Origin: a virus
Lineage: Duplodnaviria > Heunggongvirae > Uroviricota > Caudoviricetes
Length of the DNA stretch: 14,338 nt
Strand: one strand, 5' to 3'
Virus record (IMG/VR): IMGVR_UViG_3300028103_000015
This document shows positions 57 through 9,189 of the stretch, one piece after another. Every line of letters begins with the position of its first letter. Position 1 is the first letter of the stretch. The notes beneath the pieces were generated by a model. It was not told where the DNA came from. It saw nothing but the letters and a program-made list of their open reading frames with translations, and made no database searches. A program made the translations under genes and the position numbers.

Positions 57-923
57 ATGAATATAATATTCCAAATTAATGGCGGTATTGGCAAGGTGAT
101 TGCTGGTACCGCCATTTGTGCTTCTATCAAGGCTAAGTATCCTGATAGTAAACTTATTGTTGTCTCTGGTTATCCAGATGTATTCTTAGGTAATAAGAAT
201 GTTGACAGAGCATACGCTTTTGGACAACAGGCTTATTTCTATAAGGAATACATTGAGAATCAAGAGATTATGGTATTTGCACACGATCCATACTTGGAAG
301 CAAAGCACATTAAACAAGATGAACACCTTATTGAAACATGGTGTAATTTGTACGGTTTACCAGTAACAAAGACTGTTGGAGAGCTATTTCTTACACAGAG
401 AGAAATAGATTTCTTTAGCAAAAAATTTGTTTCTGATAAGCCTATTTTTTTGATGCAAACTAATGGTGGTGCTGAGACAGAACAGAAATACTCTTGGGCT
501 AGAGATATTCCTAGCTATATAGTAGAGAATGTTATACATGAGTTTAGAGAGAAGTATAACATTGTTCATATAAAGAGAGAAGATCAGATAGGTTATGAAG
601 GAACATTTGCTGTGTCTGATACCTTCAGAGCATTGATTGTTCTTATAAGCCTTAGTGAAAAGAGATTGTTAATGGATAGCTTTGGACAACATGCAGCTGC
701 AGCTTTGAATAAACCTTCTACAGTGTTGTGGGTTGCTAACAGTCCTAAGGTGTTTGGATATGACTTACATACAAACATTGTAGCTAACCCAGGAACAATT
801 AGTCCAGAATTAAGAAATGCCTATCTAAGTAAGTATAATATTGGAGGTGACCCTATTGAGTTTCCTTACAACAAAGAGTCTGAAATATTTAATGTAGATG
901 CTGTAATTAACTCCTTAAAATAA
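57..923 (+). CDS. GT9 (heptosyltransferase-like, GT-B fold) glycosyltransferase, 288 aa
   Basis: N-terminal IFQINGGIGKVIA followed by IKAKYPDSKLIVV. C-terminal LLMDSFGQHAAAALNKPSTVLW matches the GT9 DSG.xH.AAA..kP.v.l.g pattern. The usual catalytic Asp of GGIGD is Lys here. Confidence 0.7.
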   Translation: MNIIFQINGGIGKVIAGTAICASIKAKYPDSKLIVVSGYPDVFLGNKNVDRAYAFGQQAYFYKEYIENQEIMVFAHDPYLEAKHIKQDEHLIETWCNLYGLPVTKTVGELFLTQREIDFFSKKFVSDKPIFLMQTNGGAETEQKYSWARDIPSYIVENVIHEFREKYNIVHIKREDQIGYEGTFAVSDTFRALIVLISLSEKRLLMDSFGQHAAAALNKPSTVLWVANSPKVFGYDLHTNIVANPGTISPELRNAYLSKYNIGGDPIEFPYNKESEIFNVDAVINSLK

Positions 924-929
924 ACCAAC

Positions 930-1751
930 ATGGAAAAGATATTCTATCAAAGCTCATTGCCTAGAGCAGGAAGTACATTATTACAAAACATACTAGCTCA
1001 AAATCCTGATATATACGCTACACCTACAAGTGGTGTGTTAGAACTTATATTTGGTGCACGTGCTAACTATACAAACTCAGCAGAGTTTAAAGCTCAAGAT
1101 CCTGAGTTAATGAAAACAGGATGGCAAGCATTTGCTAAAGCTGGAATGGATGCATTCTACAATGCTGTTACAGATAAAAAATATGTGATAGATAAGTCTC
1201 GTGGATGGGGTATTCACTATGATTTCTTACAGTTTGTACAAGGTGGTGAACCTAAAATCATTTGCATGGTTAGAGACCTACGTGATGTATTTGCTTCTAT
1301 GGAGAACAACTTCAGAAAGCATCCTGAGAAGCAATCAGACATTTTGGATTGGTCTAAAGGTCAAGGTACTACTGTACCAAAGCGTATTGATATCTGGTCA
1401 CAGAATCCTCCTGTAGGACTAGCTATTGAAAGACTAGCTGAGATATTTAGACTAGGTATTAATACTAAAATATTATTCATTAAATTTGAAGACCTATGTC
1501 TCTATCCAGAAACAGAGATGACAAGGATATATCAATACCTTGGTATACCACACTACCACCATGATTTTGATAACATTGAGCAAATTACTAAGGAGGATGA
1601 TGAAGTGTATGGAGCATTTGGTGATCATGTCATTAGAACAAAGCTAGAGCCTGTTCCTTCTAGAGCAAAAGCATTGTTAGGGAAAGATGTAGTTGATTGG
1701 ATATACAACAACTACAAATGGTTTTATGACTATTTTAGATATTCAAAATGA
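930..1751 (+). CDS. PAPS-dependent sulfotransferase, 273 aa
   Basis: 5'-PSB loop SSLPRAGSTLL, DKSRGW, 3'-phosphate-binding VRDLRDVFAS, then KFEDL...TRIYQYLGI. Confidence 0.88.
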   Translation: MEKIFYQSSLPRAGSTLLQNILAQNPDIYATPTSGVLELIFGARANYTNSAEFKAQDPELMKTGWQAFAKAGMDAFYNAVTDKKYVIDKSRGWGIHYDFLQFVQGGEPKIICMVRDLRDVFASMENNFRKHPEKQSDILDWSKGQGTTVPKRIDIWSQNPPVGLAIERLAEIFRLGINTKILFIKFEDLCLYPETEMTRIYQYLGIPHYHHDFDNIEQITKEDDEVYGAFGDHVIRTKLEPVPSRAKALLGKDVVDWIYNNYKWFYDYFRYSK

Positions 1752-2191
1752 TTATAGTGTTATTTGGACAGCCTAATTGTGGAAAGTCCACATTGGCTGA
1801 TGCGCTTATAAAGGAAAGGTTTACTATTGTAAACATTGATGGAGACAAGCTCAGAGAGATATTTGTGAACAAAGATTACAGCAGAGAGGGGAGAATCAAG
1901 AATCTGAACAGGGCTAGTGATATTGCTACGTTCATGAGCACTATTGGGGATGACATCATCCTATCTCTCGTATATCCATATAAGGAAGCTAGAGACTACC
2001 TCAACAGCTTGTGTGACTCTGTCTATTGGGTTTATTTGACATATGATGAGCCTAGAGGCAGGGAATCATTTCATGTAAAGGATTTTGAAGAGCCTGGAGA
2101 TGATGAACGTGTTCTTCGTCTGAACACTTCTACAACATCCATAGAGGACTGTATAACTAAAATAATGACACATGCAAAACTTCTTGGCTAG
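1748..2191 (+). CDS. cysC: Adenylylsulfate (APS) kinase-like P-loop kinase, compact form, 147 aa
   Basis: P-loop GQPNCGKST, IDGDKLRE, DYSREGRIKNLNRA (cf. LDGDxxR...FSxxDRxENIRR). ATGA overlap with the sulfotransferase stop. Confidence 0.78.
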   Translation: MIIVLFGQPNCGKSTLADALIKERFTIVNIDGDKLREIFVNKDYSREGRIKNLNRASDIATFMSTIGDDIILSLVYPYKEARDYLNSLCDSVYWVYLTYDEPRGRESFHVKDFEEPGDDERVLRLNTSTTSIEDCITKIMTHAKLLG

Positions 2192-2570
2192 ATCAGCAGG
2201 ACCCACTTCTTCCAATGACAAGAAATATTCTATGTTTATAGGAAGATGGCAACCCTGGCACGCTGGACACAGATGGTTAATTGACCAGAGACTCAATGAA
2301 GGAAAGAATGTCCTCCTCTGTATAAGAGATGTAGAACCAGATGAGAAGAATCCTTGGACCGCACATCAAGTGATGTTAAACTTATTCGATGAACTTAAAG
2401 ACTTGGTTGAATCAGGAAGAGTTAGGGTTATTACTATACCTGATATTGAATCTATTAATATTGGTAGGGGTGTTGGTTATGATGTCATAGAACACGTACC
2501 CCCTCAGGAGATACATGACATATCTGCTACAAAAATCCGTGAGCAAATGAAAGTAGAAGGTAAGCTATGA
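2172..2570 (+). CDS. Small HxGH-superfamily (cytidyltransferase-like) nucleotidyltransferase, 132 aa; candidate sulfate adenylyltransferase or NMN adenylyltransferase-like
   Basis: FIGRWQPWHAGH and C-terminal ISATKIRE motifs. Overlaps cysC by 20 nt. An alternative start at MFIGRW is possible. Confidence 0.75.
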   Translation: MQNFLARSAGPTSSNDKKYSMFIGRWQPWHAGHRWLIDQRLNEGKNVLLCIRDVEPDEKNPWTAHQVMLNLFDELKDLVESGRVRVITIPDIESINIGRGVGYDVIEHVPPQEIHDISATKIREQMKVEGKL

Positions 2571-2779
2571 CTGTAAGCAAGAAAAGACATATAGCCAAAA
2601 CAATCAGCTACAGGATTGTCAGCACACTCATTGGGTTTGGTATTATGTGGCTAGTGACAGGAAGTGTGAAAATAGGAGCTGCATTTGGTGTAGCTGAGCT
2701 AGTGTACAAGCCTATACAATATTACCTACATGAGCGTATTTGGTATAAATGGATTAGATATGGACTGAAGAAAGACTAA
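2567..2779 (+). CDS. DUF2061-family small membrane protein, 70 aa
   Basis: KRHIAKTISYRIVST...TGS..IG..E...K...YYLHERIW pattern. ATGA overlap with the upstream gene. Confidence 0.75.
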   Translation: MTVSKKRHIAKTISYRIVSTLIGFGIMWLVTGSVKIGAAFGVAELVYKPIQYYLHERIWYKWIRYGLKKD

Positions 2780-4210: not shown

Positions 4211-7200
4211 GATTGTATTTTTTTAATTACGTCTTCAGATTTAATAGATGTCTGACATTCCCATTGTCTGTCTGTTCCTTTATGCACAGGACACCAGTTC
4301 CAATCTCCTGCATCAAATCTGTATTCAGCTTTGTTCCAGCATCCATGACATACATTCTCATTAGTAATTCTAATACAGCTAAACTCATGGTCAGCAGCTG
4401 TAAAGTTACTAATCATTACCACTTGTTTATTCAGAGCCCAAGCTAACCAGCTTAGCCCACTGGATAGTCCTATAAAGAACTCACTGTGATGGATAACATT
4501 CATGGTGTTCTCCATAGATGTATCTTCAAGCTGTTCACAATTGTCAAAAGGATTCTTCTCCTTGGACACATTAACTATCTTATATCCATTCTCATGTAAG
4601 AAGTTGATGGTGAGCTGCCAGTCTTCCTTCTGCCAAAACTTACATCCAGCCGTTGAATTAGTGGCTATTGTAACATATCTACCATATGAATTGTTACCAG
4701 GTGTAAAGGCTAAACGTGGTCTAATCTCTTGAAAATCAAGACCTAAGATGTTGGTTGCTGTCTGTTGGAGGGGAATAGTATTACACAAAGCTGGCTCCTT
4801 ATTACCATCATAGAACCAACCCACACTGTACATACCAAGGATGTTACCTACACCTGTTCCTGGTTCTACAAACTCAAGCTCTGGATAGACACTCTCAAAT
4901 AGGAAGTTCTTAAATGTGCTCACTGTTACATGGCAATTGTGCTTCCTCTTGAACTCAAGTACATATGGCATCCATGCAATTGTGTCTCCTAGTGATTTGC
5001 TATCCATAGCTATATAGACACGCTGGCCCTCATAATTGAGTGTATACTCATAGTATATACTTTCATCCTTCCACACCTTGATGGTCCATTTGGTAAACCA
5101 TCTCCTGTTGAGCTTCACCCAGTGATTCACCTTTATCTTGTTCTCATAGTGACACACACCCTGCTCATCATAAAATCTGACAGTGAAGGTGCTTTTGGAA
5201 TTACCTGTTATCTCTAGGAATGGCTCGTGTATAAATGTGTGGGTGATATTAATCAGTTCTTTGTCAGGCTGTATGGGTCTATTCATCACCTCCTGATACA
5301 GATCAATATGCTTCTGTGCGAAATCAAGCTTCTGTCCTTCAGGAATATCGTAGCTCACATCTGTATCTAACAGCTGGGTGAGCTGTTCTTTCATCTTTTC
5401 AGGCTTCAGATCTGTAATATACTGAGTGAACATGTCTCCATACTGAGGAAGATTTCTTGCCAGGATTGGCAGTCCATATCCTATAGCTTCTCTAATCACC
5501 AGTGGATTGCATTCAAATGTACTGTTAAACAGGAACACATCTGCAGCTGCCATAAACCTACCCACATCATCACGCTCTCCCCATACATGTACATTAGGTG
5601 GTATGTCCTTCATAATGGGTTCCCAGTAGTGCTGGAAGTTACCAGCCTGATTACCTACAAAGTGGAATTGTACATCTGGCATTTGTCTAGCCAGCTCTAC
5701 AGCTTCTCCTTGGTTCTTACCAGCAGTCCATAGTCCTACATTAAGCACATGTTTACCAGGTCCTAGATCTATGGGCTCAGATTCTTTCTTCACGATAGGA
5801 AACTCAATCACCTCCTTTCTAGAAGGCATATTAGCAAACGTCTTTAGATGGTGTGGTGTACAGAACGCATATGCATCTGGATGATAGCGCTTCTCTAAGT
5901 CTGGCTTGAACACAATGTTGTGACATGTTTCAATCATCCTCCAGGTTCTATTTGGACTGTACAGCGCTTGTCTCACCTCTTCTGGCCAGTTGTTCCAGCC
6001 ATCTTCCACCATCTCATCCACATGCACTATATCTACAGCATGTCTTTTGATGATATCAATCACCTCCATCTTATTCTCTCCCAAGGTGTAGAAGTGGTGG
6101 GCTATTTCCTTTATCTGATTCTTCTGGACAACAAAGTGATCACTGTGGTTGGAATACTCCACAACAATAATCTTAGATTTGGAATAGGCCAACAGATCTG
6201 CTATTCTCTCTAAAAGGAAGGCAGGCATTCCACCTGTCGATAGATGTGGTGCCAGGAATAATATCTTAAGCTGATTCTTCTGGCGCTCTAACATTCTGTA
6301 CATAGTGACAGCATCCTTTTCTCCGTGATAGAATAGTAACTGGTCTACATCTGCAGGCACAGCTACAAAATGTGCTAGGTGCTGCTTCTTAGTTCTGAAT
6401 GTGACATTATTCACTGTGTTCAAGGATCCATTCATGTATATGTATGGTAGTCCATCTAATGCCTTGTACTTCCACAGAAGCACGTTAGCTATAGTTTCCT
6501 CATGATAGGGAGCATAGTATTGTGGATTCTGTAACACCTTGGGATGGTTACACATCCACCACCAACTGTCAAGGAATTCTTGACAGTATTCACCAGCTAC
6601 AAAATATCCTGTTTGTCTGTATTTATCTCTGATGTATTGATCTACACCAAACAGCTCACAAGCTGGATGTTCAAGAGTAGTGGATAGGTCATCTCTACTA
6701 TCAGCCCCACCTCTTCCATTGCTGATCATCCATTCATATATTCCCTCTGTAAAATACGGATAGGCACTCTTCACTGGGAAATAGTCAAATATTCTGTCTA
6801 CATACTTGGTAGCCACACTATCACTATCCACATAGGCCACTGTTTTAGCATGCTTTAACGCTTCTTTAACAATTAGTGGGCGCTGGATGAGGATGTTGTA
6901 AATGTCTGGATTAGCTCTGTCTATATACTTCTGCTGAGGAAGATCCTTGGTTTTACAATCCCAACGGAATGTAGCAGCTCCCTTTATATCCACATCTGAG
7001 TTGAGCATATAAACCATAACAGGTAGACTGCTAAAGGTTCTAAGAGAATCTACGCACGCCTGCACAGTGTCCTTATAGCTCTCTGTAGCATATAAGACAT
7101 ATGCTTTTTCCCATCTAATGTCCTGATTTACATAGTATCCATACCACTGGTTGTCATATAGCTTCTCCAGTCCTGGGTAACGCTCTAGCATCACCTCTGG

Positions 7201-7728: not shown

Positions 7729-8076
7729 ATGCACGAACTACATAAAGTTGAGAAGGGTTGGGGTCACGAACTCTGGATCCATAACTCCCCAGAATACTGC
7801 GGAAAACTGCTGGTTTTCAAGGCTGGCAAGAAGTTCTCAATGCACTTCCACAAGATAAAGCAGGAGAGCTGGTATGTAAGCAAAGGGTCCTTCCAATATA
7901 CATGGGTGGACATGTCTACAGGCACCCTCTATACAGACTATCTGAAGGAAGGAGATGCTCTAACCATTATGCCCTACCACCCTCACCAGCTGGAAGCTCT
8001 AGAAGATGGCATCATATTTGAGGTGAGTACACAACACTTTGATGAAGATAGCTACAGACTATGGAAGGGGGACTAA
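7729..8076 (+). CDS. Cupin-fold protein (sugar isomerase-like), 115 aa
   Basis: KGWGHELWI...YCGKLL, metal motif 1 SMHFHKIKQESWYV, motif 2 IMPYHPHQL, then EVST. Start moved from the TTG at 7690 to the ATG at 7729. Confidence 0.75.
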   Translation: MHELHKVEKGWGHELWIHNSPEYCGKLLVFKAGKKFSMHFHKIKQESWYVSKGSFQYTWVDMSTGTLYTDYLKEGDALTIMPYHPHQLEALEDGIIFEVSTQHFDEDSYRLWKGD

Positions 8077-8471
8077 GGGTATGGGTGAATGGAGCATTTG
8101 ATGTCCTGCATATAGGGCATATTCAACTCCTTAAAAGAGCTAAAGAGTTTGGTAGTGTGAGAGTGGGTGTTGATAGTGACGCACGTGTTGCAGAATTAAA
8201 AGGTGATAGTAGACCATTTAACAAGCTGTCTGACAGAATAGATTTCCTGAAGAGCATTAGGTATGTGGATGAGATAGTATCATATGATTCTGAGGAAGAG
8301 CTCACCAACCAAATCAAACTTTATGAACCAGACATCATGGTGATAGGATCTGACTACATGGGAAAAAGAATAGTGGGGGCTGAATATATAACACAGATAG
8401 TATTCTTTGACAGAATAGAACATAAATCAACTACATCAATATTAGGGTATGAAGCTGGTGGTAATAGGTGA
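8061..8471 (+). CDS. rfaE2: D-glycero-beta-D-manno-heptose 1-phosphate nucleotidyltransferase-like (HldE/RfaE domain II), 136 aa
   Basis: NGAFDVLHIGH, VGVDSDARV..LKGDSRP, PDIMVIGSDY, KSTTSI. Adjacent to a RfaE domain I gene. Confidence 0.8.
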   Translation: MEGGLRVWVNGAFDVLHIGHIQLLKRAKEFGSVRVGVDSDARVAELKGDSRPFNKLSDRIDFLKSIRYVDEIVSYDSEEELTNQIKLYEPDIMVIGSDYMGKRIVGAEYITQIVFFDRIEHKSTTSILGYEAGGNR

Positions 8472-9189
8472 TGTCTGCAAGGATGTCTTCATCTATGGAG
8501 ACTGTAAACGCTTAAGTCCAGAAGCACCTGTACCTGTATTTAATCCAGTGGAAACAATAGAGAACTCAGGAATGGCTGGTAACGTGGTAGCCAATCTAAG
8601 TGCTATCAACCCCAACCTGCAGATAAATTTCCATCACAACTTTGAGAACATTACCAAAACCAGGTATGTAGATAAGAAGACCAATCACCTTTTCCTAAGA
8701 GTGGACGATGAGCCAAAGGTGAATAGAATATTCCTCACAGCTCAGCTTATTGAGGATGTAGAAACTGCAGATGCTGTGATTGTGAGTGACTATGACAAGG
8801 GATATCTAACAGAAGATGACCTGCAATATATAGCTGTTAAAGCTAAGTGGTCCATCTTAGACAGCAAGAAGCATTTAAAACCACACACCATATCAAACTA
8901 TTCATTCATCAAACTGAATGAATCTGAATACAATAAAAACAAACAGTCTCTAATTTACATGAGAGACAAAGTGATAGTGACACTTAGTTCCAAAGGAGCA
9001 ATGCATAAAGATGTTACATACAGCTCCCCAAGTCCAAAAGAAACTATAGATGTAAGTGGTGCAGGAGATACGTTCGTTGCAGCATTTACAATTAAATACT
9101 TGGAAACCAAAGACATATCTACGTCTATTGAATATGCCAATCTTATGTCATCTATTGTGGTGGGTAAGAGAGGTGTTGTAACCCCATAA
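8449..9189 (+). CDS. rfaE1: D-glycero-D-manno-heptose 7-phosphate kinase-like PfkB kinase (HldE/RfaE domain I), 246 aa
   Basis: VIGDVCKD..YG..RLSPEAPVPV, GMAGNVVAN, TKTRY, SDYDKGYL, DVSGAGDTFVAA, AN...IVVGKRG. Confidence 0.87.
   Translation: MKLVVIGDVCKDVFIYGDCKRLSPEAPVPVFNPVETIENSGMAGNVVANLSAINPNLQINFHHNFENITKTRYVDKKTNHLFLRVDDEPKVNRIFLTAQLIEDVETADAVIVSDYDKGYLTEDDLQYIAVKAKWSILDSKKHLKPHTISNYSFIKLNESEYNKNKQSLIYMRDKVIVTLSSKGAMHKDVTYSSPSPKETIDVSGAGDTFVAAFTIKYLETKDISTSIEYANLMSSIVVGKRGVVTP

Follow-up and report, generated by a model that had tools for sequence, protein, structure and literature searches.

All assimilation and dissimilation of sulfate, and all biological sulfation, begin with sulfate activation, for which to our knowledge only two types of enzyme are recognized, Sat and CysDN. 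The ATP sulfurylase reaction, in which ATP and sulfate give adenosine 5'-phosphosulfate (APS) and pyrophosphate (PPi), is very unfavorable. Here we describe a stretch of 14,338 nt from an uncultured freshwater phage (IMG/VR record IMGVR_UViG_3300028103_000015), referred to as the window, which carries on its + strand what we propose to be a self-contained sulfation module of four genes (positions 930–2779). The module encodes a sulfotransferase that depends on 3'-phosphoadenosine 5'-phosphosulfate (PAPS), a short APS kinase, a 132-aa HxGH nucleotidyltransferase (open reading frame (ORF) 2172–2570; abbreviated NT) and a DUF2061 membrane protein. An earlier note, written from the sequence alone, had pointed out that the window lacks a Sat or CysDN gene and had proposed that NT is a minimal ATP sulfurylase. 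A profile scan of the window ORFs bears out the first point, with no match to PF01747 (Sat), to PAPS_reduct/CysD or to CysN. The proposal itself gains support from the co-occurrence of NT with the APS kinase gene cysC, from NT–APS kinase fusions in both domain orders, from mutual exclusion with Sat and CysD and from the location of NT in the sulfurylase slot of assimilatory operons. Based on this comparative evidence, NT is most likely an ATP sulfurylase, and its family probably stands in for Sat as well as CysDN in many bacteria, archaea and phages. We found no paper in the literature describing this family.

The distribution of the three enzymes was compared in 120 species genomes of one bacterial class, where NT is present in 78, Sat in 18, CysD in 15 and none of the three in 9, and no genome has two. 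Three enzymes that stand in for one another at a single step would be expected to show such a distribution. In that class, each of 10 closed chromosomes (1.5–2.7 Mb) contains a single PAPS_reduct gene of CysH size, a single canonical CysC (E ~1e-69), sulfite reductase and NT, and neither Sat nor CysD was found in any of the ten. ATP sulfurylase is therefore the only step for which these chromosomes have no gene. NadD scores above its curated cut-off in all five of the closed chromosomes that were checked, indicating that NT is not the NAD enzyme of those chromosomes.

The gene neighborhoods of cellular NT genes are consistent with this assignment. In two small alphaproteobacterial genomes (L225:269–4645 and L224), NT closes a compact operon that runs in the order TP_methylase (siroheme; cobA), sulfite reductase, CysH, DUF2061, short APS kinase and NT. 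The operon covers assimilation in full except that no gene is assigned to the ATP sulfurylase step, and the genes in it that lack an assigned role are NT and DUF2061. A metagenome-assembled genome (MAG) from the Nitrospiraceae similarly has sulfite reductase, CysH and NT. Other loci combine NT with sulfotransferases: Halocatena has a sulfotransferase, a 163-aa ORF and an APS kinase–NT fusion; a Marinimicrobia single-amplified genome (SAG) has a sulfotransferase, APS kinase and NT; another alphaproteobacterium has an APS kinase–NT fusion followed by a sulfotransferase; and a 63-kb contig (L088) has glycosyltransferases, a sulfotransferase and an APS kinase–NT fusion. The family is widespread, occurring in MAGs labeled Thermodesulfobacteriota or Candidatus Dadabacteria, in Marinimicrobia, Bacteroidota, Omnitrophota, Planctomycetota, Acidobacteriota and Nitrospiraceae, in phyla of the candidate phyla radiation (CPR), in Methanosarcinales and in the isolate Halocatena pleomorpha.

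We identified 7198 near-length matches to NT, which form 1117 clusters at 50% identity and include 567 IMG/VR loci. Gene order in phages was counted in the 80 best of these 567 loci. In 77 of the 80, NT has an APS-kinase-like ORF next to it or close by, and two of the three exceptions are located at contig ends; DUF2061 adjoins NT in 65, and a sulfotransferase is present in 34. This order is not due to chance. NT and DUF2061 remain paired even on a 178.7-kb contig where the kinase is no longer close by. No Sat, CysD or CysH was found in 22 NT-bearing phage records, 10 of which are at least 90% complete. In cells, APS kinase is adjacent or fused to NT in 29 of 49 loci. The association with cysC that the earlier note had looked to as a check is thus near-universal in phages and common in cells.

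Fusions provide a second line of evidence for this association. The APS kinase domain PF01583 is carried by 25 of 35 long NT relatives (best E 9.5e-69), and a canonical APS kinase is fused to NT in both domain orders: NT precedes the kinase in P0208, P0211, P0228, P0233, P0266, P0284 and P0315, and follows it in P0148, P0293, P0231 and others. Several of the kinase halves read as fully canonical CysC sequences, for example in P0148. Opposite domain orders cannot stem from one event, so the link between NT and APS kinase must have arisen repeatedly. NT is also fused to DUF2061 in two clusters (P0232 and P0304). A different arrangement is seen in P0137 and P0141, where NT forms the end of 324–431-aa proteins whose N-terminal part resembles a homing-endonuclease or NUMOD-type module (PF07460); these may be gene-call fusions or mobile-element insertions next to NT. 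Fused kinase–NT proteins make up phrog_10255, found in phages of Xylella, Xanthomonas and Stenotrophomonas. In Xylella phage Salvo, the fused protein gp32 (L001, 381–1076) lies ~3.5 kb from a gene annotated as cysteine dioxygenase (4578–5324) and near a MazG gene, and no sulfotransferase is annotated in its vicinity.

What kind of protein is NT? NT contains GRWQPWHAGH and ISATKIR, both of them motifs that the family conserves, and the Pfam scan returned PF01467 (CTP_transf_like) alone, a marginal match at 22.7 bits against a cut-off of 21. This score passes the gathering threshold and the fold is Rossmann-like, which places NT in the HIGH nucleotidyltransferase superfamily, for which 132 aa is an ordinary size; NT is small only relative to Sat. 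Within the superfamily it is closest to the NadM-type nicotinamide mononucleotide (NMN) adenylyltransferases, as the earlier note had suspected from the motif. A profile of 37 relatives matches the solved NadM enzymes 1f9a, 1ej2 and 2qjt (best 1f9a, E 6e-13) over its first 83 positions and the C-terminal ISxTxIR, skipping NadM residues 77–109. An AlphaFold (AF2) model of NT (pLDDT 89) has its best fold matches among NadM structures (TM 0.5–0.65, with 1m8g at 0.65), followed by phosphopantetheine adenylyltransferase (PPAT). The NadM models TIGR01527 and NF002243, however, score NT at only 37.1 bits (cut-off 127) and 31.5 bits (cut-off 181.2), and no curated NCBIfam or Pfam family covers NT. The features of Sat are likewise missing: NT has no PF01747 match and lacks those that we take to be the Sat hallmarks, QxRNPxHxxH, GRD(H/P)AG and an N-terminal PUA-like domain. 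One of the 35 long relatives, a distant one, shows a weak PF01747 match (E 1.6e-4). The earlier statement that NT shares a superfamily with Sat, which is roughly three times longer, is thus correct as to the HxxH superfamily and the length, but the ancestry of NT lies with NadM-type enzymes and not with Sat. We conclude from these comparisons that NT represents a distinct, NadM-derived family that falls outside Sat, CysD and NadM as defined.

The differences from NadM are concentrated in the acceptor region. We aligned 10 NT-family rows with nine genuine NadM sequences taken from genomes of archaea and CPR members. The NadM ATP-binding motifs (GRFQPxHxGH and ISxTxxR) are retained in NT; both His, the Ser and the Arg of HxGH/ISxTxxR are invariant in one alignment (A5), and the second His is near-invariant in another (A2). 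All 10 NT rows, by contrast, lack the 26 residues directly after IPDIxx, a segment that in NadM holds the nicotinamide-stacking Trp and the SGN/TNS motif for NMN binding. In addition, VRD takes the place of the NadM IGS, and the family has a nearly invariant GRxVGY loop (GRGVGY in the window NT). Retention of the ATP motifs together with these three changes suggests that the ATP-holding parts were kept and the acceptor pocket rebuilt, which fits a much smaller anionic acceptor. R52 and R99 are candidates for binding sulfate.

DUF2061 appears to be tied to sulfate activation independently of NT. The 70-aa product of 2567–2779 (+ strand) is a two-helix membrane protein that matches PF09834 with 64.8 bits (cut-off 23.1), covering profile positions 1–51 of 52. 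DUF2061 is present in nine of 151 sampled Bacteroidota genomes, and five of the 10 loci are within sulfate-activation operons (L194–L197 and L199). One of these encodes a fusion of DUF2061 to a canonical APS kinase (L197:6362–7216), followed by cysD, cysN and cysQ. At other Bacteroidota loci DUF2061, APS kinase, cysD, cysN and cysQ are separate genes, or cysQ, a tandem DUF2061 and APS kinase occur together; two loci adjoin cysH. The phage NT occupies the place that cysDN has in these operons. The occurrence of DUF2061 both in CysDN operons and at NT loci links it to sulfate activation whichever sulfurylase is used. No DUF2061 was found in the closed NT-bearing chromosomes, and NT therefore does not need it. 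A predicted complex of NT and DUF2061 scored 0.00 with an uncertain DUF2061 fold, a result that counts neither for nor against binding.

The two remaining proteins of the module can be assigned with reference to well-described families. The 273-aa sulfotransferase (930–1751, + strand) matches PF13469 with 63.2 bits (cut-off 27), PF00685 with 46.3 bits and phrog_27463 (E 1e-42), bears a weak likeness to NoeE and contains readable PAPS-binding motifs, a 5'-PSB-like LPRAGST and a 3'-PB-like RDLRD..S. The 147-aa APS kinase (1748–2191, + strand) matches PF01583 with 41.9 bits (cut-off 21.1) over profile positions 4–98 of 152. It retains the P-loop, DGD..R and the stretch YS..GR..N..R, which we take to be the APS-contacting residues of solved APS kinases. 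Every one of its best PDB matches is an APS kinase (2yvu, 8a8h, 3uie and PAPSS), and the 2yvu alignment spans the motifs. NCBIfam adenylyl-sulfate kinase models are its top matches, yet it falls below their cut-offs (TIGR00455, 40.5 bits against 138.7) and the C-terminal lid is trimmed, so that it does not qualify as a full-length enzyme. A comparably short APS kinase (168 aa) is present in the alphaproteobacterial cys operons, and the use of this form in a housekeeping operon argues that the trimmed phage kinase is functional. Judging from its motifs, 1748–2191 would make PAPS from APS.

We can now outline how the module may work. HxGH and ISATxIR of NT would hold ATP as in other HIGH-superfamily enzymes. 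Sulfate, admitted to a pocket remodeled from that for NMN by the 26-residue deletion, the change of IGS to VRD and the new GRxVGY loop, would attack the α-phosphate of ATP to give APS and PPi. The APS kinase, translationally coupled to NT here and fused to it in relatives, would pull the reaction by converting APS to PAPS. The sulfotransferase would use the PAPS, most likely to sulfate a heptose-containing glycan built by neighboring genes, and DUF2061 would be a membrane companion of sulfate-activating enzymes in cells as well as in phages.

Several considerations weigh against NT being an ATP sulfurylase. The support comes from comparative genomics and constitutes strong inference rather than demonstration. 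In both sequence and structure NT comes closest to NMN adenylyltransferases, and none of the 50 best fold matches of the NT model is Sat. The exclusion pattern within the 120-genome class is probably clade-structured and would thus reflect few independent replacements. The absence of a gene is weak evidence in MAGs and SAGs, which make up many of the genomes used, though not the 10 closed chromosomes. Among 34 NT-bearing genomes checked for both enzymes, Sat is present in two and CysD in four. Two sulfurylases in one genome are known from rhizobia, which have CysDN and NodPQ, so this coexistence weakens the case without refuting it. In an Acidobacteriota MAG, an NT–APS kinase fusion (L087:7300–8259) is divergently adjacent to cysD–cysN within a sulfotransferase–glycosyltransferase cluster, where NT seems redundant; the near-invariant Arg of GRxVGY is replaced by His in this protein, and its NT domain may be diverged or altered. 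Finally, the phage could draw on APS from its host. The earlier argument that an APS kinase needs APS, and the phage therefore a sulfurylase, holds for the need for APS, but a sulfurylase of its own is not strictly needed.

Host APS is central to a reading in which NT is an accessory of the APS kinase, either a regulatory or nucleotide-binding partner or an enzyme of APS, PAPS or 3'-phosphoadenosine 5'-phosphate (PAP) turnover, and the phage relies on host CysDN. Bacteroidota hosts typically have CysDN, and the six of 34 genomes with Sat or CysD in addition to NT and the cysDN-adjoining fusion of the Acidobacteriota MAG would be accommodated. We nevertheless regard this as very unlikely, because it leaves unexplained both the three-way exclusion and the closed chromosomes in which CysH, CysC and sulfite reductase occur without any known sulfurylase, and because the catalytic HxGH and ISxTxxR are conserved across the NT family. 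It is also unlikely, in our estimation, that the acceptor adenylylated by NT is a different small anion, for example a sugar phosphate, a phosphonate or an oxyanion other than sulfate, giving a product that the kinase would 3'-phosphorylate to a PAPS-like but different cofactor or donor. Such a role could be read from the trimmed phage kinase with its scores below the NCBIfam APS-kinase cut-offs, from the fused forms in Xylella, Xanthomonas and Stenotrophomonas phages without an annotated sulfotransferase nearby and from the setting of the module in a glycan-building island with another kinase/nucleotidyltransferase pair. It is countered by the many fully canonical CysC fusion partners (E down to 9.5e-69), by the operons that place NT with CysH and sulfite reductase, by the mutual exclusion with Sat and CysD in the 120-genome class and, in the window, by a kinase that keeps its APS-contacting residues and adjoins a PAPS-type sulfotransferase. 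The similarity to NadM (1f9a in sequence, 1m8g in fold), and the label of NMN adenylyltransferase that some metagenome sources give to NT homologues, raise the question of whether NT is an ordinary NMN or nicotinic acid mononucleotide (NaMN) adenylyltransferase that increases NAD supply during infection, its cysC neighborhood being coincidental. We consider this highly improbable given scores far under the NadM cut-offs, the deletion after IPDIxx, a near-obligate linkage or fusion to APS kinase and the NadD already present in closed NT-bearing chromosomes.

The organization of the module is compact, and the description of its four genes as chained by ATGA or short overlaps is confirmed by the ORFs and the sequence. 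The starts at 1748 and 2567 overlap the preceding stop codons as ATGA. NT (2172–2570, + strand) begins 20 nt before the end of the kinase gene and in the +1 frame relative to it, and an N-terminal extension common to NT homologues backs the start at 2172. We considered whether kinase and NT are one frameshifted gene. A single fused protein does exist (P0121, 280 aa), with a linker that matches the NT N-terminal extension, but the split with the same overlap is kept in many contigs and is thus a true two-gene arrangement. The NT part of P0121 is 70% identical to that of the window, so either the split or the fusion is recent.

Upstream of the module, ORF 57–923 (+ strand) encodes a 288-aa protein without a Pfam match, whose N-terminus looks like a GT9 (heptosyltransferase) domain by eye. 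It is a probable maker of the glycan to be sulfated and would be accessory, outside PAPS synthesis. Its homologue adjoins the sulfotransferase in most related loci that have one, which suggests that the sulfated target may be a heptose glycan made by neighboring genes. Elsewhere in the window, a phage glycan island encodes an epimerase, an FkbM methyltransferase, a 1175-aa multi-transferase and an HldE-like transferase with a PfkB kinase, and the lysis and fiber genes include those for a GH19 endolysin and a collagen-like protein. A second HxGH nucleotidyltransferase is encoded at 8061–8471 (136 aa; PF01467, 54 bits), and after it comes an ORF that resembles a fragment of a PfkB kinase, at 8449–9189 (246 aa). 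The two make up an HldE-type heptose pair that is split and has its order reversed, and they do not belong to the sulfation module. With an HldE-type transferase and PfkB kinase already in the window, we rejected a role for NT as heptose-1-phosphate adenylyltransferase. A megablast search of the whole window against cultured phages matched nothing.

If the assignment is correct, NT constitutes a third, evolutionarily independent class of ATP sulfurylase, a NadM derivative of ~115–130 residues that works with APS kinase. We think it likely that NT is the sole sulfate-activating enzyme of most of a Thermodesulfobacteriota/Dadabacteria class, of Marinimicrobia, of small marine alphaproteobacteria, of some haloarchaea and of hundreds of phages, that such genomes, at present classed as incapable of sulfate activation, would actually possess it and that DUF2061 is a hitherto unrecognized membrane component of sulfate activation. 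Sulfur-cycle annotation would then change for abundant uncultured marine and freshwater lineages that now seem to be without this step, and phages would be able to make PAPS alone for glycan sulfation. NT would also offer a minimal scaffold for enzymatic PAPS production, and DUF2061 would gain a functional context.

It is useful to compare NT with the systems that it most resembles. The phrog_10255 'kinases' (for example Salvo gp32; annotated as adenylylsulfate kinase in phage Bacata) correspond to a fused form of the window kinase (profile 2–85) and NT (134–229). They differ from the window arrangement in being one polypeptide that is annotated as a kinase only, and in Salvo no adjacent sulfotransferase or DUF2061 is annotated. 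The NadM-type NMN adenylyltransferases of M. jannaschii (MJ0541, 1f9a) and M. thermautotrophicus (1ej2 and 1m8g) share with NT the Rossmann-like core of the HIGH superfamily, GR(F/W)QPxHxGH, the NPxT helix start, the IPD strand and the C-terminal ISxTxIR. NT departs from them in the missing residues after IPDIxx, in VRD for IGS and in the invariant GRxVGY, and its partners are APS kinase, CysH and sulfotransferases rather than NAD genes.

The resemblance to Sat (PF01747) and to the bifunctional Sat–CysC proteins and PAPS synthases (Aquifex 2gks and human PAPSS) is of another kind. These have in common with NT the proposed reaction, the HxxH superfamily, fusion to APS kinase in either order and placement in cys operons. 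NT, however, is about one-third the length of Sat, has no PF01747 domain, PUA-like domain, QxRN or GRD(H/P)AG and represents a separate lineage of NMN adenylyltransferase-like origin. CysDN and NodPQ occupy the same operon position as NT, as seen in the Bacteroidota order DUF2061, APS kinase, CysD, CysN and CysQ, and CysD and NT exclude one another in one class. Their fold is unrelated, however, comprising a PP-loop ATP pyrophosphatase and a GTPase, and their reaction is driven by GTP. NT has no GTPase partner, and the unfavorable equilibrium would have to be pulled by APS kinase and pyrophosphatase alone.

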